A stretch of 63,305 nucleotides of DNA, the filler included. It is 8 parts of 8 records of this genome, joined end to end, with 100 filler letters (N's around TTAATTAATTAA, not from the genome) between each part and the next. Parts side by side here need not be neighbours in the genome. Positions count along the whole stretch, not along the records: positions 35,425 to 44,615 come from SRR31156797_41316; 7 more parts are not named here. One strand, 5' to 3'. How positions within the stretch are numbered: the stretch's first letter is position 1; each line of letters begins with the position of its first letter. Below, in pieces: positions 3,376 through 56,017 of the stretch. A program made the translations under genes and the position numbers. The notes beneath the pieces are model-generated. The model saw only the letters and a program-made list of their open reading frames with translations, was not told where the DNA came from and searched no databases.

Positions 3376-3740
3376 TATACACCTCCGGAAAATATACTTT
3401 CCAGTGCCTTTTTCATTCCTTTATTTAACCCCAATTCCTCTTGATTTTTCTTTAATTCATCAAGTGTCATATTATTAAAATCCGTAAACTCTTTCATTCG
3501 TGAGAAAACAGTTACCCCCTGCATTTTTTTCCCATTGATAATAGAATCATTATCTCCTAATACCAATATCAAAAGAGTTCCCGCATAAAATCCCCCTTTG
3601 GATTTCCCTATAACTATTCTTCCTTGTTTTCTTAAACTTACAATTTCCCCGCTAAAGTTCTTTACTTGAAATAGTGTCAAAAAAGATTGAAGAACCCATG
3701 CTGTTCCCAAAATTGCAAAGTAAATTAAAAATTGTTTCAT
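3375..3740 (-). CDS. gutM: Glucitol operon activator GutM
   Basis: N-terminal hydrophobic helix with [23 protein letters not shown]; start moved to ATG 3740 behind a GGAGG RBS. Confidence 0.85.
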
Positions 3741-4067
3741 TAAAATAAACCTCCTCATTAAAATAATAATATAATAAACTCTTAATAATTTTATTAATAT
3801 TATTAAACCTCATATTAATTCTCCTGTCAATCGTTTAAACTCTAAGACTTTTCTTCATTAATTAATCTTAATTCAAACAACTCAACGACTATCCACTGTC
3901 AAAATGTCGTAGTAAATAGCCGCTGATTTTATTAGTTTCGATCTTTCGATTGATACTGTATCTTCAAATTCTAAAAAAATACGACTTTTAATATTTTAAA
4001 ATTCTTTTTTTATTCTTTGAAGATTTTTATGATTTTTTATTATATTTAAACATAAAATATAATAATA

Positions 4068-7184: not shown

Positions 7185-7284
7185 NNNNNNNNNNNNNNNN
7201 NNNNNNNNNNNNNNNNNNNNNNNNNNNNTTAATTAATTAANNNNNNNNNNNNNNNNNNNNNNNNNNNNNNNNNNNNNNNNNNNN
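7185..7284. other. Artificial contig spacer
   Basis: 44 N + TTAATTAATTAA (stops in six frames) + 44 N. Confidence 0.99.
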
Positions 7285-13522: not shown

Positions 13523-13622
13523 NNNNNNNNNNNNNNNNNNNNNNNNNNNNNNNNNNNNNNNNNNNNTTAATTAATTAANNNNNNNNNNNNNNNNNNNNNN
13601 NNNNNNNNNNNNNNNNNNNNNN
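13523..13622. other. Artificial contig spacer
   Basis: N44-TTAATTAATTAA-N44. Confidence 0.99.
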
Positions 13623-19563: not shown

Positions 19564-19663
19564 NNNNNNNNNNNNNNNNNNNNNNNNNNNNNNNNNNNNN
19601 NNNNNNNTTAATTAATTAANNNNNNNNNNNNNNNNNNNNNNNNNNNNNNNNNNNNNNNNNNNN
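19564..19663. other. Artificial contig spacer
   Basis: N44-TTAATTAATTAA-N44. Confidence 0.99.
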
Positions 19664-26281: not shown

Positions 26282-26381
26282 NNNNNNNNNNNNNNNNNNN
26301 NNNNNNNNNNNNNNNNNNNNNNNNNTTAATTAATTAANNNNNNNNNNNNNNNNNNNNNNNNNNNNNNNNNNNNNNNNNNNN
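26282..26381. other. Artificial contig spacer
   Basis: N44-TTAATTAATTAA-N44. Confidence 0.99.
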
Positions 26382-35324: not shown

Positions 35325-35424
35325 NNNNNNNNNNNNNNNNNNNNNNNNNNNNNNNNNNNNNNNNNNNNTTAATTAATTAANNNNNNNNNNNNNNNNNNNN
35401 NNNNNNNNNNNNNNNNNNNNNNNN
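35325..35424. other. Artificial contig spacer
   Basis: N44-TTAATTAATTAA-N44. Confidence 0.99.
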
Positions 35425-35454
35425 GAGTTGCCCCGTCTCTGGTTTTCAAGACCA
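35425..35454 (-). repeat. att site: displaced tRNA-Ser(UGA) fragment (anticodon stem-loop plus variable arm)
   Basis: Minus strand TGGT-CTTGAAA-ACCA-GAGACGGGGCAACTC; tRNA-like sequence stops at the anticodon stem with no D-arm beyond it. Confidence 0.82.
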
Positions 35455-35560
35455 TAGATAAACTTTACCCACTATCCCCAAAAAGCCCTAAGAATCCCCT
35501 TTTATCCGGCAATTTGTCCACCTTGACTTACTCGCTATTCCTCTCTATTTTTGTCCAAGA

Positions 35561-35583
35561 TGTGGGGACTAGCGTGGGGACCA
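35561..35583 (+). repeat. Putative integrase arm-type site (left copy)
   Basis: TGTGGGGACTAGCGTGGGGACCA, 22/23 identical to 44505-44527; internal tandem GTGGGGAC. Confidence 0.72.
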
Positions 35584-35609
35584 TTTGATATCTTTGTCTG
35601 AGCGAGAGC

Positions 35610-36737
35610 ATGGCTAAATATAAACGGCACAAAACGAACTATCCAGGTGTTTACTACATCATGGGTACGCACGTATCCAGCGGCAAGCCAGAACGTGTGT
35701 ACTACATCCGTTATCGGAAAAACGGGAAAATGATCGAGGAAAAAGCAGGCCGCCAGTTTCAAAACGACATGACGCCTGCCAAAGCCTCACGAATCCGTGG
35801 CAAGAGAATTGATGGCGATGAGGTCTCAAACGAAGAGCGCCGCAAAGCCGAGGAAGGCACCTGGAGCCTCGATAAGATATGGGAAGAATACAAGCGCCAA
35901 AACTCACATCTCAAAGGACTCAAAATTGACGCCTATCGATTTAAAAAGCATTTGAAACCTCCCCTTGGACACAAGCCCCCATCAGAAATCTACACAATAG
36001 ATGTAGACCGCCTAAGACTGCGCAAGCTCAAAGGCAAATCTCCACAGTCAATCAAACTTGTCTTGTCCCTCCTCAAAAGGATAATCAACTTTGGGGTAAA
36101 GAAAGGGTTATGCCCTGCTCCCGATCCTGCAAAGCTCCACATAACCATTCCCAAAGTGGATAACACCACCACGGAAGACCTTGCCCCCGACCAGTTGAAA
36201 AAACTACTTAAGACGCTTGATGAGTCAGCAAACCAACCCGTTGCATGCATGATGAAGCTGGCTCTTTACACCGGCATGCGTCGGGGAGAAATGTTCAAGC
36301 TGGAATGGTCTGATATCGACTTTGAAAATGAGTTCATAACGCTACGCAACCCTAAAGGCGGCAAGACGGAATCTATTCCACTCAACGACGCAGCCCGTGA
36401 AGTGCTTGAGAGCTTACCCAAAACGAAGAGCCACTTTGTCTTCCCTGGAAGAGATGGTAAGCAGCGAAAAAATGTCACTCCACAGATCAACAAAATAAAA
36501 AAGAAAGCAGGTCTACCCAAAAATTTTCGACCTCTCCATGGCCTCCGCCACGTATATGCATCGATGCTAGCGAGTTCCGGCCAGGTTGACATGTACATGC
36601 TTCAAAAGCTGCTCACACACAAAAGCGCGGCAATGACTCAAAGGTACGCCCACCTACGAGATGAGGCACTACAAAAGGCTTCCAAAGTGGCAGACGCCTT
36701 AATTACAGAGATTAAGAAGACAGCAAACGAGGATTAA
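35610..36737 (+). CDS. Tyrosine integrase
   Basis: N-terminal arm-binding region; TGMRRGE, K, HGLRH, LTH, TQRY catalytic residues; adjacent to att. Confidence 0.95.
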   Translation: MAKYKRHKTNYPGVYYIMGTHVSSGKPERVYYIRYRKNGKMIEEKAGRQFQNDMTPAKASRIRGKRIDGDEVSNEERRKAEEGTWSLDKIWEEYKRQNSHLKGLKIDAYRFKKHLKPPLGHKPPSEIYTIDVDRLRLRKLKGKSPQSIKLVLSLLKRIINFGVKKGLCPAPDPAKLHITIPKVDNTTTEDLAPDQLKKLLKTLDESANQPVACMMKLALYTGMRRGEMFKLEWSDIDFENEFITLRNPKGGKTESIPLNDAAREVLESLPKTKSHFVFPGRDGKQRKNVTPQINKIKKKAGLPKNFRPLHGLRHVYASMLASSGQVDMYMLQKLLTHKSAAMTQRYAHLRDEALQKASKVADALITEIKKTANED

Positions 36738-36739
36738 AC

Positions 36740-37603
36740 ATGCTCTCAGACAACAGCAAATATCTGCTATTCTGGCTATGGGAGTACACTTGTCGAACTC
36801 CCCAAAACAGGCCTCTTTATGCGAAACTTCTTAAAGCCCTCAAAGAACCTGTTGAACAGCCAGAATCAGTTCAACAAATGCTCAAGAAGGGGTGGCTCGT
36901 CGCTGTCATGGACCTTGGTGGATTCGACTTCAAAGAATGGGGTAATGTCTCCAAGAACTGCGATATCTACAAGAGTTCAGAAGACATCTTACAAGCAATT
37001 ATCGAGGACAGCTTTCGCCACCGCTTCCCATCACCTCAAATCGAATGGCCCGGATTAAACGATCTGCCACTTTCACAAAAACAACTCACAACTATTGTTC
37101 ATGATTCTTTCCCCAATGGGATAGATCGCAATCAAAAACAGAAGGAAATCGCCAGGTGGAAAGAAAAGACTAGTCAAGCAGGAGAACACGGCGGTTTCTA
37201 CTTCATTGACTTCACAAAACCATTGGAAGAAATCCAAGCACGAATTGAATATGAATATAGTATTCATAAAAATCTTATGAATGGCACCGGAATCGAACAC
37301 CTTGACATAGACAACCTCAAAAGCATTGAAATTCAACTAATCGAGCAGTGGGTCAGATCAAAAACAAAAATGAAACGAATCCACTCCTCCAAAGTAATCA
37401 GCCGAGTTATAGGGTTGTGGATGTGGGATTATCAACATGAACACAATGTCATTCCACAACAGGCCATACAGGCTTTCAAAAAAAAGTATGAGTACAAGTT
37501 GCCAGGCAAAGACGATGGGTTCGATTCAGCTGACCTTCGCTACTATCTTCGCCAAACAGACAAATGTATAAACAAGGCTGAAGTCCTTCACTTCTCCAAA
37601 TAG
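36740..37603 (+). CDS. Hypothetical protein coupled to the integrase
   Basis: 287-aa ORF starting 2 nt after the integrase stop; no family recognised. Confidence 0.7.
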   Translation: MLSDNSKYLLFWLWEYTCRTPQNRPLYAKLLKALKEPVEQPESVQQMLKKGWLVAVMDLGGFDFKEWGNVSKNCDIYKSSEDILQAIIEDSFRHRFPSPQIEWPGLNDLPLSQKQLTTIVHDSFPNGIDRNQKQKEIARWKEKTSQAGEHGGFYFIDFTKPLEEIQARIEYEYSIHKNLMNGTGIEHLDIDNLKSIEIQLIEQWVRSKTKMKRIHSSKVISRVIGLWMWDYQHEHNVIPQQAIQAFKKKYEYKLPGKDDGFDSADLRYYLRQTDKCINKAEVLHFSK

Positions 37604-37681
37604 GGAGAATACTGATTCCACTAATCGCCCGCCTTTTAATTATCTTTTTAGATTCTTTTACTCTCCCTTACTGCTTTCCAT

Positions 37682-37715
37682 AAGGTCTCCCTACAGCAAG
37701 GAGGCCTTTTCTTTT
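37682..37715 (+). terminator. Probable terminator after the int operon
   Basis: AAGGTCTCC...GGAGGCCTT followed by TTCTTTT. Confidence 0.55.
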
Positions 37716-37751
37716 GTTTGCTTCGGCTTCCTTCAAACAAACGGAGGCACT

Positions 37752-37940
37752 ATGTCTTTACTCACCGAAAAAGAAACGGCCCAGCGACTCGGAATAAGTA
37801 TTAAGACTCTCCAAGCCCGCAGACTAAACAGACGACAGCCCAGCTATGTGAAAATCGGCCGACTGGTTCGATACAAACCGGAAGTGATTGAGGCGTTCAT
37901 TGCTGAAAACACCGTCAACCTCGACTGTAACGCGGCCTAA
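37752..37940 (+). CDS. AlpA/excisionase-like HTH protein
   Basis: LLTEKETAQRLGIS.KTL..R....PSYVKIGRLVRY; GGAGG RBS. Confidence 0.88.
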   Translation: MSLLTEKETAQRLGISIKTLQARRLNRRQPSYVKIGRLVRYKPEVIEAFIAENTVNLDCNAA

Positions 37941-37945
37941 CCTCT

Positions 37946-38740
37946 ATGCAGCGCGGCTACGTTCGTCTCTGGCGCAAGATACGGGACAAGGCGATCCTTG
38001 AGGATTCAACACTTTGCCAAGTCTTCCTGAAAGCTCTGCTTGATGCTGAATTCAAAAGGACGCAGCGAAGAGTCGGCACGAAGTTTATTGACTTAGAACC
38101 GGGCGAATTTGTCTTTGGCCGCACAGCATGGGCCAGAGCGCTTAATGCCACAGAAAATCAGATACGGACCCGCATAAAGCTACTTGAGCGAATGGGGACT
38201 ATCTCCGCCAGCAAGTACTCCAGCACGTACACCGTGTATAAGTTCAACAATTGGAATACTTACGCGACAAGCGGTGACGCCCCTCACCCGCAAGTCAGTC
38301 AGGAATCAGCCCGCAAGCCGTCGGCATCCCGCCCGCATGTCGCCACATATGAAAAAGAAAAGAAGCTAAGAAACAAAGAAGTGGAGGATACTCACGTATC
38401 CTCTTGTTCGAAGCCTCCAAACGGCTCCGAACCGAATATCATAACCACCCTTCCCCTCAAAGATGGCACCGAATTCGCCATCACCGAAGAATTTGCCCAA
38501 GAGCTTGGGCAACTTTATCGGATACCGGACTTGATGAAATCATTTCGGGCAATGCGGGGTTGGCTCATTGGTAATCCCACAAAACGGAAAACCAATAAAG
38601 GAATCAAACGGTTCATCACTGGTTGGCTCAACAGGGAATTGGATGATGCGACGAGGACCGGCGGGAGAAAGGTAATCAATATGCCCCGCCACACACAGAA
38701 CAACCTCGCGGTTATCAACAAGCTCCTTGAGGAGGACTGA
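37946..38740 (+). CDS. Phage replication initiator (lambda O/DnaD-like)
   Basis: GYVRLWRKI N-terminal wHTH, low-complexity linker with DNA repeats, C-terminal WL..NP.KRKT..GIKRFI..WL.RE. Confidence 0.75.
   Translation: MQRGYVRLWRKIRDKAILEDSTLCQVFLKALLDAEFKRTQRRVGTKFIDLEPGEFVFGRTAWARALNATENQIRTRIKLLERMGTISASKYSSTYTVYKFNNWNTYATSGDAPHPQVSQESARKPSASRPHVATYEKEKKLRNKEVEDTHVSSCSKPPNGSEPNIITTLPLKDGTEFAITEEFAQELGQLYRIPDLMKSFRAMRGWLIGNPTKRKTNKGIKRFITGWLNRELDDATRTGGRKVINMPRHTQNNLAVINKLLEED
38287..38380 (+). promoter_or_regulatory. Putative iteron replication origin inside the initiator gene
   Basis: CCCGCAAGTC (38287), CCCGCAAGCC (38310), CCCGCATGTC (38332), then an A-rich tract at 38351-38380. Confidence 0.62.
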
Positions 38741-38742
38741 CT

Positions 38743-39375
38743 ATGGATTGGACCAACAAGGATGATCGAACCTCATTTCTAACCGCCTTCGGTAGCCTGA
38801 GCGAGATATTCGGAAAGGAATTCTCTGAATTCTCAGCCAAGGCATACTTCAAGGCTTTGTCCTCCCACCCTGTGCGGAATGTGGTCAACGCAATCGAAAA
38901 AGCAATCATTCGCTGCCGGTTCTTCCCCAAGCCGGTTGAGCTCTTGGAATTCCTTGAAGGGACGCCGGAGGACCAAAAAATTAAGGCCGAAGGTAAAGCA
39001 CGGGAAGTGCTCATGGCTGTCCGCCGGTACGGAGCATATGCCAACGTCCTTTTCCCTGATCCTGTCACCAATGCAATTCTCCGCCAATATTTCGGAGGCT
39101 GGATTGCGGTATGTGCCACACGCGAAGACGCGCACAAATGGTTCATCAAAGATTTTGCTGATCGCTACGCTGAATACAAAGCGAACGGCATTGAGGACAC
39201 GGAACCGCTGCGGGGAATTGGAACAAGCCCTATCGTTGAATACGTCGGAGGTACTCATCGCCCGGCCCTGATCGGAAAAAGACAGCAGGAAGTCAAGCAG
39301 TTGGCAACCGGCCTCGGCAAAGAATTGAGCAGCCGTAGCCGAGCACCCAGCACACAGGCCGCGAGAAAGGCCTAG
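38743..39375 (+). CDS. Phage replication accessory protein (DUF6475 / helicase loader-inhibitor-like)
   Basis: F...F..L.E.FGK, Y..AL, FFPKP.EL, V...V.RYG.Y..V.F.DP, GGW..C, WF.KDF...Y; directly follows the initiator. Confidence 0.65.
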   Translation: MDWTNKDDRTSFLTAFGSLSEIFGKEFSEFSAKAYFKALSSHPVRNVVNAIEKAIIRCRFFPKPVELLEFLEGTPEDQKIKAEGKAREVLMAVRRYGAYANVLFPDPVTNAILRQYFGGWIAVCATREDAHKWFIKDFADRYAEYKANGIEDTEPLRGIGTSPIVEYVGGTHRPALIGKRQQEVKQLATGLGKELSSRSRAPSTQAARKA

Positions 39376-39633
39376 AGAGGGTTCAATTCTTGTTTCTCAT
39401 AACAACTTGAAGCTGGGAGCGGGCGAAGGCCTCAAATTGCGGAACAAAGCAAATATGAGCGGAATTTATAGCATTCGGAAAAGACACACAAAAACACAGG
39501 AAACGCCCAAAAACCATGATTCAAACAATTTCAAGACATTAAGCATGTTTCACAGAGGTTTCCGAACGTTTTTTTACAGTTGTTAGCCACCCAAGGAAGT
39601 AGGTTTCTCCACACACATTACACGAAGGAAAAA

Positions 39634-40272
39634 ATGAAAGGCTGTAGACCACTCTCCCAAAGGGAGATTCACCGAATTTTAAACTCTTTCACCGGACGCA
39701 ATCGGCTCCGCAATCGAGCTCTGTTCGTCCTTGGCGCGACATGCGGCTTTCGAATTCAGGAACTCCTTTCGCTACGAGTCAAAGACGTTGTATTGGAGGG
39801 CCAAATGGTGGACCGGGTGACCGTCCAGAAGCGGAACATGAAGGGCTCCATTGAATCCCGCAATGTAGTTCTCCTCAATGTGGCCCGCACAGCCGTTCTT
39901 GACTGGATCACATCCGGCCTCTGGGAACGCGGCTATGTTTCGCCTGAAACATTCCTTTTCCGATCTGAGTACGGATTAAATCAACCGATATCCCCACAAC
40001 ATGCTCACCGTGTTCTTTCGCACAACTACAAGCGAAACCACCTGTCCGGGAAACTTGGCACCCACACCATGCGAAAAACCTACGCGAAATTCCTTTATGA
40101 GGACGCCCAAGAGCGCCGGGGCCAGGGAGAAGCTATCGACCCGCTCCCGCTTGTCTCGAAGGCGCTTGGCCACAAGTCTCTCAACAGCACCATGTCTTAC
40201 CTTTCATTCATGACCGAGGACATCGACATATCAGCCGCAAACTACGAACGCAGAATCTTTGGAGGTCTGTGA
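39634..40272 (+). CDS. Small catalytic-domain-only tyrosine recombinase
   Basis: MKGCRPLS start behind a GAAGGAA RBS; RNRALF, GFRIQE, THTMRKT, LGH, TMSYL. Confidence 0.88.
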   Translation: MKGCRPLSQREIHRILNSFTGRNRLRNRALFVLGATCGFRIQELLSLRVKDVVLEGQMVDRVTVQKRNMKGSIESRNVVLLNVARTAVLDWITSGLWERGYVSPETFLFRSEYGLNQPISPQHAHRVLSHNYKRNHLSGKLGTHTMRKTYAKFLYEDAQERRGQGEAIDPLPLVSKALGHKSLNSTMSYLSFMTEDIDISAANYERRIFGGL

Positions 40273-40463
40273 TGCAACAATATCGTACGGTCAAAATGCT
40301 GGCCGAGGAACTGAGTGTACACCCTGACACCATTTATCGCATGTGCGAACGGCGGGAGATTCCTCACCACCGCATACGCGGTCGAATCCGGTTCAGCCCG
40401 GAGCACGTCAAGGCGTTGAAAAAAGCAACCCGCGTTCCCGCTCGAAGGGGAGGAATTCAATGA
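40269..40463 (+). CDS. Second excisionase-like HTH protein
   Basis: TVK.LAEEL.V.PDTIYRM.....IP..RI...IRF; overlaps the recombinase stop. Confidence 0.82.
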   Translation: MMQQYRTVKMLAEELSVHPDTIYRMCERREIPHHRIRGRIRFSPEHVKALKKATRVPARRGGIQ

Positions 40464-40822
40464 ACAATTCACACACCCCCAACGAATTTGCAGTCCACCT
40501 GAACAACCTGGCGGCAACTGTCTACCACGACAACCCGGACGCCGCCCGAACAGCCAAACGGGCAGCAATGATAATTGAACAATGCATGAAAGACATGGCG
40601 ATACTGTTCAAAGTTTTCAAGGAAGCCAACGTTTTCATCAAACACTTTTACTTTGACAACGATTTGCCCAGCGAAATTGCAGATTGGGACCTCGTCCAGA
40701 CGGGACCGTGGACACACGGGAAGCAAGCCGAAGACGCTCTGAAAAATCTGGCTGTTGAAGTTTTCATGACTTGCTCTGAATTAAGGCGACGCGAAGAACG
40801 AATAAACAAACCGATCAACTAA
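40460..40822 (+). CDS. Hypothetical protein
   Basis: ATG at 40460 with GGAGG RBS and ATGA overlap with the previous stop; 120 aa. Confidence 0.65.
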   Translation: MNNSHTPNEFAVHLNNLAATVYHDNPDAARTAKRAAMIIEQCMKDMAILFKVFKEANVFIKHFYFDNDLPSEIADWDLVQTGPWTHGKQAEDALKNLAVEVFMTCSELRRREERINKPIN

Positions 40823-40834
40823 AAGGAATTAATC

Positions 40835-41905
40835 ATGTGCGGTAAATCGAGCAACAACGGCGGAAAAAGCAAAGGCGCAACATCTAGCTTGGGCGGATAC
40901 AGCTTCGGCCATGGTCTCGGTAGCATTGCCGACCAGCGTCGCGCCGAAAACAGGACGGCAATGAATCAAGGAATAAATATCAGTAACAGCCCCGGATTTC
41001 AAAGTCGCGGCCTTGAGCACACGTCATCAATGGGAGGACCAACTAAAACACCTCAGGCGCAAATCAAACCTCAAGGCGTTCTCATGACTCCAACGCCCGT
41101 CTCCAAACCTCGTATGACAAGCGTTTTTGGGACCATGGGAATTGATAACATCAAAGAAACAGAAGATGCATTCGAAGGCACTGGATTTATGGGACTTGGA
41201 AAAAAAGGCTCGATCAATGTTCCGGATGATTATGGTTGGGACTTTACCGCAAACAAAGCAATTGGGACCGAACCATCTTGGAGTGCAAACCGTTCCTTAC
41301 CGGGCAAGGCGCGAGATATGGTCGCCAAGGCTATTGGAAGCCCCTACGACAGAGACGTAACAGCAGATCGAGCTAGGGATATGCTTTCGAGGGGAAAAGG
41401 CACACTTTCAACCTGGACGGAGGGCCTTCAGGAAGGGAACTACCAGTACGACAAGGCAGGAAATCCAACTGAGGACAAATTAGGCAGAGCATACGATATG
41501 CTCAGCCCCATCACGGATGTTATCACAGGCAATCCGCTTGGAGCGGTATTCAGCACGGCTTCAGCTATCGACACGGCCATGGATCACAATAAACTTGAAA
41601 AGGCCGGGGTTTTCGGCCAGCCGCTTACTCAGCACGCACCACTGACACGCGGGAGAACACTGCTCTCTCGTACCATGTTCGGTAATGGAGAGAGTGACCA
41701 CGGCCCTTCCATGAAACCTTCACTCAAACCAGCCTTAAAAACTTCCTCCTCAGAAAAGCCAAAGCGTAGGCCTAGACGCGGAAGGGAAACTTTGATGCTG
41801 ACAGGGCCACAAGGAGTAACGAACCCTGCTGAACTGGCTATACGACGGCTCTTTGGCGAGGACGGAAAAAGAAAACCAGTCTTGATGCAAAAGCATTACG
41901 AGTAA
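40835..41905 (+). CDS. Gly/Ser/Thr-rich protein with podovirus small-virion-protein-like termini
   Basis: AAGGA RBS; N-terminal MCGKSS; C-terminal RRGRETLMLTGPQGVTNPAELAIRRLFG. Confidence 0.6.
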   Translation: MCGKSSNNGGKSKGATSSLGGYSFGHGLGSIADQRRAENRTAMNQGINISNSPGFQSRGLEHTSSMGGPTKTPQAQIKPQGVLMTPTPVSKPRMTSVFGTMGIDNIKETEDAFEGTGFMGLGKKGSINVPDDYGWDFTANKAIGTEPSWSANRSLPGKARDMVAKAIGSPYDRDVTADRARDMLSRGKGTLSTWTEGLQEGNYQYDKAGNPTEDKLGRAYDMLSPITDVITGNPLGAVFSTASAIDTAMDHNKLEKAGVFGQPLTQHAPLTRGRTLLSRTMFGNGESDHGPSMKPSLKPALKTSSSEKPKRRPRRGRETLMLTGPQGVTNPAELAIRRLFGEDGKRKPVLMQKHYE

Positions 41906-41916
41906 CTTTGAATCTG

Positions 41917-41945
41917 TTGCACATTTTCTCGGATATGCTTATATT
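41917..41945 (+). promoter_or_regulatory. Sigma70-type promoter
   Basis: TTGCAC (41917-41922), 17-nt spacer, TATATT (41940-41945). Confidence 0.72.
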
Positions 41946-41949
41946 GTAT

Positions 41950-42142
41950 GTGTGAGGTGATAACATGGGAATACCCGTTAGGGTGGGCCGTGCTGGATTG
42001 GCCCCCAGCGCCTATGCGGGCCTCACATATAAAGGCTGACCTAGGAAACGTCTCCTCTTGGAGCTTGGGTCGCTGGGGGGTGCCGCCCAGCGCCTAGGCA
42101 GCCTACCAAGGAACCCCGTGCAAAAGTGCGGGGTTTTCTTTT
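41950..42142 (+). ncRNA. Candidate structured small RNA (or 24-codon peptide mRNA)
   Basis: Lies between the promoter and the terminator; GC-rich, two multi-stem domains, exact 11-nt repeat CCCAGCGCCTA at 42004 and 42086. Confidence 0.55.
42112..42142 (+). terminator. Intrinsic terminator closing the small transcript
   Basis: AACCCCGTGC-AAAA-GTGCGGGGTT followed by TTCTTTT. Confidence 0.78.
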
Positions 42143-42235
42143 AAGAACCTCCTCCCCCAATTCAAGGGAAAAACAAATTCAAATATACAACGCTAATTTC
42201 CCTTCAAACCGAGGGAAACCCTTTCGCCCTTCAGT

Positions 42236-42355
42236 GCGTCAAGTTAGAGTATACCCTAACTCAACTACTTAAAACTATACTGATTCGCGTCAATTTAGAG
42301 TGTGAAATCTTTTTTCTTGACATGTCGTCAATGCAAGCTTAGAGTCTATCTTAAC
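42236..42355. promoter_or_regulatory. Putative res site of the serine resolvase
   Basis: GCGTCAAGTTAGAGT (42236), GCGTCAATTTAGAGT (42287) and TTAGAGT (42339) immediately upstream of the resolvase, overlapping a TTGACA. Confidence 0.6.
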
Positions 42356-42381
42356 GGAAGACAAAAACGGAGGTTGACACC

Positions 42382-42936
42382 ATGTCAGGTCAGAACATTG
42401 CGTATATTCGAGTTAGCACTCTGGAACAAAATACCGCCCGACAGCTTGACGGGATGGAATTTCACAGAACCTTCACCGACAAGGCAAGCGCAAAGGACAC
42501 CAACCGCCCCGCCTTACGTGATTGTCTGGACTTCGTACGCGAAGGTGACACCCTTCACATTCATTCCATAGATCGCCTCTGTCGCAATCTGCGCGATTGC
42601 CAAGAACTCTTAGACAACCTACTTGCAAAGGGCGTGTCTGTCCGCTTCCATCGCGAAAACCTGACTTTCACCGGCCAAGATGATTCCATGTCTAAGCTCA
42701 TGCTCCAAATGATGGGAGCCTTTGCCGAATTCGAAAGGAACTTATTGAGAGAACGCCAAGCCGAAGGAATTGCCAAGGCCAAGACTGCCGGGAAGTACAA
42801 GGGCCGCAAGCGGGCATTGAGCGAGGATCAAATTAAAGAAATCAAGACACGGCTTAACCATGGTGAAGGCAAGGCGACTCTGGCTGCTGAGTATGGCGTG
42901 AGTCGACAGACGTTGTACGCTACCTTGAAGCGGTAG
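42382..42936 (+). CDS. Small serine recombinase (resolvase/invertase) with C-terminal HTH
   Basis: YIRVST.EQN..RQ, SIDRL.R, AEFER.L.RERQ.EGI, GRK, GVSRQTLY. Confidence 0.95.
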   Translation: MSGQNIAYIRVSTLEQNTARQLDGMEFHRTFTDKASAKDTNRPALRDCLDFVREGDTLHIHSIDRLCRNLRDCQELLDNLLAKGVSVRFHRENLTFTGQDDSMSKLMLQMMGAFAEFERNLLRERQAEGIAKAKTAGKYKGRKRALSEDQIKEIKTRLNHGEGKATLAAEYGVSRQTLYATLKR

Positions 42937-43040
42937 TAATTTGCCACAAACAACCAAATGACATTATTAATATTGTCGGGAAACGTTTCGGACGTGTGCG
43001 CGACGCCTCTTTTTGAGTAGCACGTGGCGTCCCGGCAACA

Positions 43041-43068
43041 AAAAGGCGACTCAATCAGAGTCGCCTTT
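43041..43068. terminator. Bidirectional terminator between resolvase and Xre gene
   Basis: AAAGGCGACTC-AATCA-GAGTCGCCTTT perfect 11-bp stem. Confidence 0.7.
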
Positions 43069-43267
43069 ATCTTTTCTGGCTGAACAAATCCTTCACCCTC
43101 ACCCCAAGGATATCCGCGATCCGCTCTAGGGTATTCAAAGTGCACTTCTCGACAAGCTCCCCACGGGCGCGGTGGACCGTACCTGAAGACAGGCCGGTAA
43201 TCTGGACCAGCTTACGAATGGAGACACCTTTTTTCTCCATCAACTCTTTGACGTTGCTTTCGATCAT
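43067..43267 (-). CDS. Xre/Cro-C1-type HTH regulator (66 aa)
   Basis: MIESNVKELMEKKGVSIRKL..TGLS.GTV.R, TL.TLERIA..LGV.V.DLF; start re-called at ATG 43267. Confidence 0.85.
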   Translation of the reverse strand: MIESNVKELMEKKGVSIRKLVQITGLSSGTVHRARGELVEKCTLNTLERIADILGVRVKDLFSQKR

Positions 43268-43286
43268 ATTCGCCTTCTCACCCCTT

Positions 43287-43344
43287 TGACTTAATATATT
43301 GACACAGATTGATTTAGATTGGTATGAGTTAATATATTGAGTCA
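43287..43344. promoter_or_regulatory. Paired operator-like palindromes in a divergent promoter region
   Basis: TTAATATATTGA at 43291 and 43329, near-palindromic; the first overlaps TTGACA at 43299. Confidence 0.62.
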
Positions 43345-43369
43345 TGGTAGATTTTAAACAGGAGGATTT

Positions 43370-43705
43370 ATGCAGGACATTATGCCAACTTACAGCCATC
43401 GCCCAGAAGAAGCAGGCGCAAATCATTTATGCTCATTGCGCTGCCTGCTTGAATACGTAAACGATCAAGCCATAGACGATTCAAACGCACCGCTGATCGG
43501 GATAACCGAAGCGGCCTTGGCTCTACTTGAAAAAATTAGAAGTGACATTGAAAAAGAAATGGCCCCCCTCAAAGGCTTGAACATTGTTCGCTACAACAAA
43601 TCCCAAGAGAACGTTTGCGCAGGAGTCGCAAACAAATTCATCGGATTTGAAGTGCAAGAAGACGCCAACTTTGACATTAAACTCAAGGAGGACCTTCATG
43701 CCTAA
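43370..43705 (+). CDS. Hypothetical protein
   Basis: AGGAGG RBS; 111 aa; divergent from the Xre gene. Confidence 0.68.
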   Translation: MQDIMPTYSHRPEEAGANHLCSLRCLLEYVNDQAIDDSNAPLIGITEAALALLEKIRSDIEKEMAPLKGLNIVRYNKSQENVCAGVANKFIGFEVQEDANFDIKLKEDLHA

Positions 43706-43940
43706 ATACGATAACTACGAACCGACACTGCCCACCTGTAGCGATCCGATTTTAGAGCTATATTCAATTCAGCACGCGGTAGCTGCACTTAGCGAACAAC
43801 TCAACTCCCAAGAACAACTAGGTGAAGCATACATGGCCCTTCTTATCAGCAAAGCCCTAGAGGCTGTTGCAGGAAAAATGGATAATGAAGACTGGAAGCA
43901 AGCAAACGAGCCTCCGTGCAAAGTCCATGCGCTTGGCTAG
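43698..43940 (+). CDS. Hypothetical protein
   Basis: AAGGAGG RBS before ATG 43698; 80 aa; overlaps the previous stop. Confidence 0.65.
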   Translation: MPKYDNYEPTLPTCSDPILELYSIQHAVAALSEQLNSQEQLGEAYMALLISKALEAVAGKMDNEDWKQANEPPCKVHALG

Positions 43941-43947
43941 AAACACC

Positions 43948-43974
43948 AAAGGCGGCCCGGACAGGCCGCCTTTT
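43948..43974. terminator. Bidirectional terminator
   Basis: AAAGGCGGCC-CGGACA-GGCCGCCTTTT between convergent ORFs. Confidence 0.72.
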
Positions 43975-44309
43975 CATTTGCCAAGTAGGGATTTGTAATA
44001 GTCATTTACCTGCGTGGCCAAGTTACGCCGCTGAGTTTCGGCCTCTTCTCGCGTGTCCCAAGCATCGTAAACAATCTGCGAATTATCTTTGGGACGATAA
44101 TCGACTCTGGAATCAGTCAGCATAACCGGGAAACCCCATAAAGGGACATGTGATCCATCTTCAATTTCCAAAAATGCAATTCCCTCGTAGACTTGACCTA
44201 TCATGATAATTTTGGCGATCGGGACAAGGGAACCTGATAGGTTTACCAAATAATCAAATTCAGGATCGTCGGATTCGTATTCAACAACGGATTCAAATTT
44301 GGGTGACAT
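43974..44309 (-). CDS. Hypothetical protein
   Basis: AAGGAGGT RBS; acidic 111 aa. Confidence 0.65.
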   Translation of the reverse strand: MSPKFESVVEYESDDPEFDYLVNLSGSLVPIAKIIMIGQVYEGIAFLEIEDGSHVPLWGFPVMLTDSRVDYRPKDNSQIVYDAWDTREEAETQRRNLATQVNDYYKSLLGK

Positions 44310-44504
44310 GGGCTACCTCCTTTGCGCAAAGGATAACATACCCATTCAAAGGAGAATTAGGGAAATAAGACATACAAAATGCCCACGCCCCATATCCTTG
44401 AATACACGCTATGATACAACAGCAGAATTGAAAGAGCCTTGTTAAGTGAGCAAATTATAATTCAAATTTTGATCTTGCCACTCAAATGACAATTTAGCCT
44501 TACC

Positions 44505-44527
44505 TGTGGGGACTAGAGTGGGGACCA
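44505..44527 (+). repeat. Putative integrase arm-type site (right copy)
   Basis: TGTGGGGACTAGAGTGGGGACCA, direct repeat of 35561-35583. Confidence 0.72.
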
Positions 44528-44545
44528 CTTTTCAATCAGCAACAG

Positions 44546-44577
44546 AAAAGGGCTTGCCTCATTCGAGACAAGCCCTT
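44546..44577 (-). terminator. Terminator downstream of the tRNA 3' end
   Basis: AAGGGCTTG...CAAGCCCTT stem with a T-run on the minus strand, just after CCA. Confidence 0.75.
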
Positions 44578-44585
44578 GATATTAC

Positions 44586-44615
44586 TGGCGGAGAGGAGAG
44601 GATTCGAACCTCCGG
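44586..44615 (-). tRNA. 3' end of tRNA-Ser (truncated; att site)
   Basis: Minus strand CCGGAGGTTCGAATCCTCTCCTCTCCGCCA: T-arm, acceptor stem, discriminator G and CCA. Confidence 0.88.
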
Positions 44616-44715
44616 NNNNNNNNNNNNNNNNNNNNNNNNNNNNNNNNNNNNNNNNNNNNTTAATTAATTAANNNNNNNNNNNNNNNNNNNNNNNNNNNNN
44701 NNNNNNNNNNNNNNN
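44616..44715. other. Artificial contig spacer
   Basis: N44-TTAATTAATTAA-N44. Confidence 0.99.
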
Positions 44716-55917: not shown

Positions 55918-56017
55918 NNNNNNNNNNNNNNNNNNNNNNNNNNNNNNNNNNNNNNNNNNNNTTAATTAATTAANNNNNNNNNNNNNNNNNNNNNNNNNNN
56001 NNNNNNNNNNNNNNNNN
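55918..56017. other. Artificial contig spacer
   Basis: N44-TTAATTAATTAA-N44. Confidence 0.99.

Follow-up and report, generated by a model that had tools for sequence, protein, structure and literature searches.

A predicted two-domain structured RNA, possibly a moron-type small RNA, in a phage-derived element

Introduction

Prophages of Escherichia coli encode several small RNAs (DicF, IpeX, AgvB/AsxR and StxS), and small RNAs that arise from an internal promoter in a 3′ untranslated region (3′-UTR) are exemplified by DapZ and MicL. RNA structures with roles in 3′-end protection or processing are represented by the intergenic RNase III sites of T7 and by lambda sib. The packaging RNA (pRNA) of φ29 (Rfam family RF00044) is to our knowledge known only from φ29-like phages with protein-primed genomes. 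Here we describe an RNA candidate on the + strand of a stretch of 63,305 nucleotides made of joined contigs (the window, i.e., the whole stretch of DNA that was analysed), where it lies within a 9.2-kb contig (35425–44615) and follows the virion-protein-like gene P0001. The accessible portion of one account (PMC3594210) presents the moron as an independent transcription unit in a prophage; like prophage morons and 3′-UTR small RNAs, the candidate is short, has a promoter-like site and a terminator of its own, and is found in a temperate-phage element.

We take the locus to hold a structured RNA element, in which two paralogous Y-shaped domains are followed by an intrinsic terminator. Our preferred reading, with a probability of roughly 0.4, is that of a moron-type phage small RNA that stands alone, is about 190 nt long and lies where a late transcript ends.

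Sequence signals and predicted fold

A promoter-like site, two folded domains and a terminator make up the stretch 41917–42142 on the + strand, an observation that was confirmed (the coordinates of the parts are collected in Table 1). Folding of 41945–42142 gave −98.3 kcal/mol, compared with −77.1 ± 4.4 for 200 dinucleotide-preserving shuffles, none of which was as good (z = −4.8); the minus strand gave z = −3.3, with one shuffle as good. The minimum free energy (MFE) structure has 69 pairs, with about 70% of the bases of the RNA predicted to be paired, and eight of these pairs are G–U and would become A–C mismatches on the other strand. That the signals are strand-specific is supported by these G–U pairs, by a T-run that follows the terminator hairpin on the + strand only, and by a G–C to G–U change in a core helix of the copy in L036, a 5.7-kb metagenome contig whose RNA (3692–3888) is 96% identical to that of the window and scores 239.6 bits with R1, the search model of the RNA that was used to scan the loci of relatives.

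Folded separately, the two domains share one plan, in which a bulge or internal loop parts the outer helix from the inner helix, and the inner helix leads to a three-way junction that bears two hairpins. In domain 1, the closing TGTGAGG/CCTCACA proposed in an earlier note on this DNA is present as the outer helix (GUGUGAGGU/GCCUCACAU, pair probability ~1.0), and is followed by the inner helix CAUG/UAUG (~0.8) and the hairpin UACCC-GUUA-GGGUG (~0.75). Of the inner pairings given in the same note, TAAC(AT)GGG/CCCGTTA is disfavoured (0.01–0.07), and the hairpin GUGCUGG-AUUGGCCC-CCAGCGC was recovered at 0.5 versus 0.47 for the alternative GGGCC/GGCCC, so that the model would have the two as competing folds of a bistable domain. 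The suggestion that GGGCC/GGCCC forms a pseudoknot was rejected on steric grounds, as the linkers would have zero length on both sides; the pairings would be mutually exclusive alternatives. Domain 2 was found as described there (GGCTG-A-CCTAGG/CCTAGG-CAGCC with CTCC/GGAG and CGCTGGG/CCCAGCG): its outer helix (AGGCUG/CAGCCU) is parted by a bulged A from the inner helix (CCUAGG/CCUAGG), which is followed by the hairpins CUCC-UCUU-GGAG and CGCUGGG-GGGUGCCG-CCCAGCG, and all four helices have a probability of at least 0.89.

The first hairpin differs between the domains, whereas the second ends in a shared strand that continues directly into the inner helix. This strand contains the exact 11-nt repeat that had been pointed out earlier and is indeed present; it has only two matches in the whole window, allowing at most one mismatch, a count that is not rare by itself (15 of 100 shuffles give at least two), and around it extends a direct repeat of 34 nt, whose two copies are 71% alike and spaced by 82. 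The 3′ strand of the inner helix reads CCUA[U/G]G, and, by eye, its sole difference is matched on the 5′ strand (A–U in domain 1, C–G in domain 2), a single case that is, as far as the two sequences go, compensatory between the paralogs. A constant scaffold with variable loops, as earlier proposed, would thus be a description of the two domains compared with each other only.

The motifs named as promoter and terminator in the earlier note are both present in the sequence and enclose a segment that has, as it had said, no long open reading frame (ORF), the longest being 49 aa (41948–42097). A promoter scan places the same promoter-like site one base over (TGCACA-16-TATATT, 9/12); the overall match is 9–10/12. 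The site starts 12 nt past the stop codon of P0001, and its −10 ends 5 nt before the first helix; a start about 6–8 nt downstream of the −10 of this putative promoter would coincide with that helix. The terminator was not listed by a simple terminator scan; the terminator stems of three Rfam leader or small-RNA models align to it, and its hairpin and U-run are kept in L036. The RNA thus has a terminator of its own, as a moron would.

An 11-nt complement between the U-tail (42132–42142) and 41867–41877 was dropped, as by eye it is not kept in L036. Just past the terminator lies an inverted repeat (42161–42171 and 42197–42207, TTCAAGGGAAA and TTTCCCTTCAA, 10/11 complementary by eye), and L036 has a perfect 13-nt pair (TCAAGGGGAAATA and TATTTCCCCTTGA, 3898–3910 and 3930–3942). 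Relative to the window, the left arm in L036 has G for A (GGGA to GGGG) and the right arm, matching it, has C for T, in surroundings that are not alignable. The repeat could form another hairpin or serve as a binding site for a dimer.

Known families and relatives

No match to Rfam 15 was obtained at the gathering threshold in the whole window, and ARAGORN found no tRNA-like or tmRNA-like gene; the view that the segment is no known riboswitch, ribozyme or tRNA thus held when compared with the Rfam covariance models, none of whose families was matched. When 41700–42400 was searched with E up to 10, nine weak matches were obtained, among which there was neither a riboswitch family nor the c4 family. 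All were carried by the terminator hairpin, and the best reached less than half of the gathering scores (24.2 bits versus 55 and 22.1 versus 50). Two further identities were considered by eye and rejected, namely a K-turn or box C/D motif (GUGAUGA occurs in L036 only, without a matching D-box strand) and a CsrA sponge (only four GGA motifs, one of them single-stranded).

The window and L036 cease to be similar directly past the terminator and are alike again only after about 940 bp, in the region upstream of an invertase gene; the intervening segment of L036 carries a gene on the opposite strand with a weak TPR match. Near-identical copies, as DNA contigs only, were found in three studies of seawater, marine and marine sediment metagenomes (X2, X3 and X5), with 5/153, 3/293 and 4/150 differing letters, respectively. 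The bin 42119–42225 is nearly empty in X2 and X5, where the loci continue differently, and the loose end behind 42119 in X2 resembles L036. A further set (X4) had no listed piece on the RNA, which has no bearing on absence.

Beyond these copies, the searches were negative. The region gave nothing against plasmids and phages by megablast and blastn, nor did tblastn with P0004, a relative of P0001, against plasmids or with P0001 against phages. Nothing was found in viral contigs searched for loci related to P0001, A1, the L036 structural protein and P0007, or in genome contigs searched with A1 and P0004. A two-repeat DNA pattern retrieved 35 loci from viral contigs, none with an R1 match at the pattern site; the sole R1 match among them, in L004, is weak (13.1 bits) and lies away from that site. 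A strict single-domain pattern retrieved no locus from the viral contigs, and a loose one 30 loci with one match each, none of which R1 matched with E up to 10.

Between the window and L036, 60 of the 61 consensus pairs are invariant, one changes from G–C to G–U and none is compensatory, where the consensus was derived from the same alignment and so leans towards conserved pairs. Two sequences that are 96% alike have no power for covariation. The check proposed in the earlier note, by homologs and covariation, thus yielded near-identical copies and 0/61 compensatory pairs, and the structure is supported by thermodynamics, strand bias and the comparison of the paralogs, not by covariation.

Upstream gene and late-operon context

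The RNA begins 45 nt past the stop codon of P0001, in the same orientation. Inspection of the sequence and a terminator scan revealed no terminator between the two, and transcription of P0001 would therefore run into the RNA. The C-terminus of P0001 has a weak match to phrog_831. Its family is rare, with four matches in an index of 5.8 billion proteins and 13 clusters among 1.84 billion representatives, and the named members are from Pseudodesulfovibrio, among them P0004 (P. indicus, on a 54.5-kb contig) and P0006 (chromosome of P. sediminis). In L036, a 93%-identical relative follows a 791-aa internal virion protein (phrog_684, E = 4e-157), whose own relatives are found in temperate podoviruses (e.g., Pseudomonas phage Ab31) and pelagiphages. 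In Ab31, the structural gene is followed by a tail fibre gene, an opposite-strand O-antigen acetylase (lysogenic conversion) and an integrase. By analogy, the end of an Ab31-type structural operon is a spot for accessory genes, typical of morons. The degraded element in the window keeps the RNA and P0001 without the rest of the late operon.

Two loci with relatives of P0001 were read, and the RNA was present in the close one (L036) and not in the distant one. The latter, L068, is a provirus from IMG/VR; its relative of P0001 is 29% identical, and the next gene begins 4 nt further on.

The end of P0001 itself differs between the copies. The L036 relative stops at TAG where the window has GAG (window 41860–41905; L036 3436–3653), and L036 then has a 172-bp duplication (40-nt repeat, 93% alike) with a 47-aa ORF that starts with MCG and ends in the same ...KRKP[IV]LMQKHYE tail as P0001 of the window. 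From the sequences, the window P0001 looks like a fusion or deletion version. The C-terminal tail that stands ahead of the RNA in the window is also found in the relative P0007. At the start of the protein, M1 and G3 are both close to invariant among 12 aligned family members (90% or more for each).

Proposed role and points against it

According to the reading that we favour, the late transcript of P0001 would read into the RNA, which would share the terminator of that transcript, and the promoter-like site past the P0001 stop would also yield a discrete RNA of about 190 nt. This RNA would act in trans by binding a protein, as a decoy or a scaffold with two like sites. Pairing of about 70% of the bases, the occurrence of the same 11-nt strand in the same position twice and the lack of an antisense target (see below) point to protein binding rather than seed pairing. 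The broader proposal of the earlier note, a novel non-coding RNA, is supported in part, in that no Rfam family was matched and the fold lies far beyond that of the shuffles; the antisense and recombinase-partner roles that it had attached to the RNA found no support.

Several observations weigh against a stand-alone small RNA. The promoter-like site is of chance-level quality, as six sites of such quality were found where 2.5 ± 1.5 are expected in 2.5 kb (about one per kb), and the L036 site is weaker by our count (TTGCCC-N17-TATGTT, 8/12); its two changes spare the TTG and TAnnnT positions. L068 lacks the RNA: the best R1 score in the 13-kb locus, with filters off, was 7.4 bits (E = 0.09), and the whole record (29,967 bp) gave no match. 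No diverged homologs were found, no pair changes on both sides, and shuffles equal what was observed. The RNA and its promoter-like site are 95.6% identical between the window and L036, compared with 93.5% for P0001 and 88.9% for the invertase region, i.e., conserved no better than the flanks. About six of the approximately ten L036 differences hit and break pairs of the MFE structure of the window alone; these six concern helix ends, one isolated pair, or the top or base of the terminator stem, and by our reading the core helices of both domains are untouched except for one wobble change. It also counts against this reading that transcription and, purely so, protein binding as the mode of action are inferred; so are the 5′ end and the stability of a discrete RNA.

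A bolder version, which we hold to be a long shot, is that of a new phage RNA class in which two near-duplicate three-way-junction modules would each present CCCAGCGCCUA to a protein of the host or the phage. That protein could be a dimeric factor of defence or RNA processing (Cas-type proteins that bind repeats are included here), for which the RNA would be a decoy with two sites; alternatively, the RNA could be a cofactor of the serine recombinase encoded downstream of it in both loci that carry it. If this were true, an RNA expressed from a prophage would change host immunity or DNA rearrangement. The related idea that the RNA is the partner of the neighbouring recombinase was not borne out, as that neighbour is an ordinary serine recombinase (PF00239) and is separated from the RNA in L036 by the 940-bp segment with its opposite-strand gene.

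If real, the candidate would be an unclassified, highly structured addition to the short list of phage non-coding RNAs outside enterobacteria, from a rare lineage of marine temperate podovirus-like elements with protein relatives in Pseudodesulfovibrio. The duplicated module suggests a defined ligand, which would make the candidate a practical entry to a prophage RNA–protein interaction. At present, the candidate is of value as a lead rather than as a result.

Alternative explanations

In the main alternative, the same observations would be explained by a cis-acting 3′-UTR element of the late virion transcript, serving 3′-end protection or RNase III-type processing, with no separate promoter-driven RNA. 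The colinearity with P0001 and the uninterrupted transcription from it would be expected, the RNA follows the same gene in both of the two loci that have it, the promoter-like site would be a chance occurrence that is degraded in L036, the phage belongs to a podovirus type that has internal virion proteins, and each domain offers about 19–20 stacked base pairs. Simple stabilisation, however, leaves two elaborate three-way junctions with a duplicated strand unexplained, as well as a −10 exactly ahead of the first helix and the retention of the RNA with P0001 in a degraded element that has lost the remaining late operon; we regard this explanation as rather unlikely, yet to be taken seriously. 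Clearly less probable is that the stretch acts at the level of DNA, as a binding site for a recombinase, an integrase or a replication protein or as a repeat element, or that it is GC-rich and palindromic by chance and has no function as an RNA. The recombinase gene that begins 240 nt downstream, the minus-strand fold that also beats the shuffles, and conservation no higher than in the flanks fit with it, whereas the G–U pairs and the G–C to G–U change favour a + strand RNA, as does a T-run after the hairpin on one strand only. Moreover, the window has no third copy of the 11-nt repeat, and the candidate sites of the recombinase are at 42236–42360, away from the RNA. The two copies are in direct orientation with a spacing of only 82 bp, too little for a serine recombinase to carry out resolution or inversion. 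The order of promoter, structured RNA, terminator and gene also recalls a cis-regulatory leader by which read-through of the terminator into the invertase gene would be controlled, either a put-like antitermination RNA or a riboswitch with tandem aptamers, and the two similar three-way-junction domains are reminiscent of the tandem glycine aptamers; domain 1 is bistable in the model. This is very unlikely, as the bistable helix does not touch the terminator, searches with E up to 10 matched no riboswitch family, a separate promoter-like site serves the invertase gene (10/12, 42317–42345), and RNA and invertase in L036 are separated by the 940 bp with the opposite-strand TPR-like gene.

Phage-borne mimics of CRISPR repeats have been described, as far as the accessible parts of the sources go (PMC10651486; bioRxiv 10.1101/2024.10.29.618823). 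Two hairpin units in a phage element, 71% alike over 34 nt and identical in their 3′ part, could accordingly be taken for degenerate repeats of an RNA anti-CRISPR or a crRNA-like mini-array. The 82-nt period and a "spacer" of 48 nt are long for this, the "spacer" is almost fully paired into the domain helices, the two units have different loops and 5′ strands, the window has no CRISPR array, and no multi-copy unit appeared in viral contigs (30 loci with one match each, none R1-like), all of which renders it highly improbable. An antisense immunity RNA comparable to P4 CI or P1 C4, a role put forward in the earlier note, would have its complementary sites within the element that encodes it; this reading is disfavoured and of still smaller likelihood. 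It would suit a small structured RNA in a temperate element with a repressor-like HTH gene, and in domain 2 the 12-bp helix is followed by ACCA, which is reminiscent of tRNA-like substrates of RNase P; on the other hand, ARAGORN found no tRNA-like gene and c4 was not matched at E up to 10. The search for complements of the RNA in the element gave nothing above chance, with the longest in the 9.2-kb contig and L036 being 10 nt, i.e., at chance level, and with whole-window counts at or below the shuffled means (17 versus 20.9 for 10-mers and 3 versus 5.3 for 11-mers). Finally, the 49-aa ORF, which is open in both copies, might encode a protein. We find this scarcely credible: an open frame is expected anyway at 96% identity, no relatives exist among 5.8 billion proteins (26–86 aa searched), no Shine-Dalgarno sequence is seen by eye, and by our reading four of the five differences to L036 change the residue.

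The host element and the downstream recombinase region

The window consists of eight contigs joined by seven N44-TTAATTAATTAA-N44 linkers, which have stops in all six frames. The pieces range from 27% to 61% G+C and need not share one organism, and no inference can be drawn across the linkers. The contig with the RNA reads as a small integrated element of phage origin that is probably degraded or composite. It closes with the 3′ end of a tRNA gene, and a second integrase-family ORF mid-element points to two elements that form a nested or degraded composite. A 22-nt direct repeat, for which no occurrence is expected by chance, has one copy just upstream of the integrase gene and the other just downstream of the tRNA 3′ end and its terminator. 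These copies are candidate attL/attR or integrase-binding sites, and would delimit an element of about 8.9 kb.

Table 1. Features of the RNA candidate, its contig and the window
Feature	Position	Strand	Details
Promoter-like site	41917–41945	+	TTGCAC-N17-TATATT; −35 at 41917–41922, −10 at 41940–41945
Domain 1	41950–42028	+	from MFE and pair probabilities
11-nt exact repeat, copy 1	42004–42014	+	CCCAGCGCCTA; 3′ strand of the conserved hairpin of domain 1 and start of the inner helix
Domain 2	42033–42104	+	from MFE and pair probabilities
11-nt exact repeat, copy 2	42086–42096	+	CCCAGCGCCTA
Intrinsic terminator	42112–42142	+	ACCCCGUGC-AAAA-GUGCGGGGU then UUUCUUUU; from sequence and fold
P0001	40835..41905	+	356 aa, virion-protein-like; no Pfam family; with P0002 between the short integrase-family ORF and the RNA
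P0002	between the short integrase-family ORF and the RNA		no family
Tyrosine integrase gene	35610–36737		
DnaD-like replication gene	37946–38740		
phrog_10105/DUF6475 gene	in contig 35425–44615		listed between the DnaD-like gene and the short integrase-family ORF
Short integrase-family ORF	39580–40272		230 aa; PF00589, 6e-17
Serine invertase/resolvase gene	42382–42936		PF00239 at 5e-36, plus HTH_7
HTH repressor-like gene	43067–43426	minus	
tRNA gene 3′ end, closing the contig	44586–44615	minus	
22-nt direct repeat	35562–35583 and 44506–44527		GTGGGGACTAG[C/A]GTGGGGACCA; 0 expected by chance
Linkers	7185–7284, 13523–13622, 19564–19663, 26282–26381, 35325–35424, 44616–44715, 55918–56017		

The serine recombinase gene lies downstream of the RNA in both loci that carry it, at a distance of 240 nt in the window and about 1.1 kb in L036. 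Ahead of this gene, three direct copies of CGTCAA-(N1–7)-TTAGAGT are seen (window 42236–42360; L036 4825–4950), which overlap the promoter-like site of the invertase and are kept in L036 at 88.9% identity; these putative sites are likely res-type or autoregulatory sites of the recombinase. Another pair of repeats (TGACTTAATATATTGA and TGAGTTAATATATTGA, 16 nt, 94% alike and also palindromic) is located at 43287–43344, between the repressor-like gene on the minus strand and the divergent ORF 43370–43705, where it overlaps promoter-like sites on both strands. These are likely the operators of an immunity switch.

Comparison with known systems

The closest described relatives in kind remain the prophage morons and the 3′-UTR small RNAs. 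As with morons, the candidate sits at the end of a late operon, where relatives carry accessory genes. Of the two loci available besides the window, the close L036 has it and the distant L068 does not. It is far more structured than the small RNAs that act by seed pairing, with its two duplicated three-way-junction domains, and, as a predicted RNA, it has no sequence or Rfam relationship to any of them. Like the lambda pR′-tR′ transcript of 194 nt ("6S") and StxS, the candidate would be a phage transcript, here of about 190 nt, that runs from a promoter to an intrinsic terminator; however, lambda 6S stands ahead of the late genes and after Q, whereas the candidate comes after virion-protein genes, shares no sequence similarity with it and has no Q-like gene in view. 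Similarly, P4 CI and P1/P7 C4 (Rfam c4) are small structured RNAs of temperate or satellite-like elements with an immunity region nearby, but the candidate has no c4 match and no target in the element, and at about 190 nt is more than twice their size.

With the φ29 pRNA, the candidate has in common that it is phage-encoded, contains a three-way junction and adjoins virion genes; it differs in having two junction domains instead of one and in lacking an Rfam match. The bridge RNA (seekRNA) of IS110 elements is likewise a two-module structured RNA that adjoins a recombinase gene. The neighbours of the candidate are P0001, without a Pfam family, and a serine enzyme (PF00239/HTH_7) rather than a DEDD one, and the spacing to the recombinase is not kept (240 nt versus ~1.1 kb); no bridge-type complementarity above chance was found in the contig, and by eye the 22-nt end repeats are unrelated to the loops of the RNA. 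Two similar three-way-junction domains, one behind the other and ahead of a terminator, are likewise a feature of the tandem glycine riboswitch, but no Rfam match was obtained for the candidate at E up to 10 and the gene downstream of it is not conserved. The sequence thus belongs to no described RNA family, and the kind to which it comes closest, a phage-borne small RNA at a spot for accessory genes, is already known.

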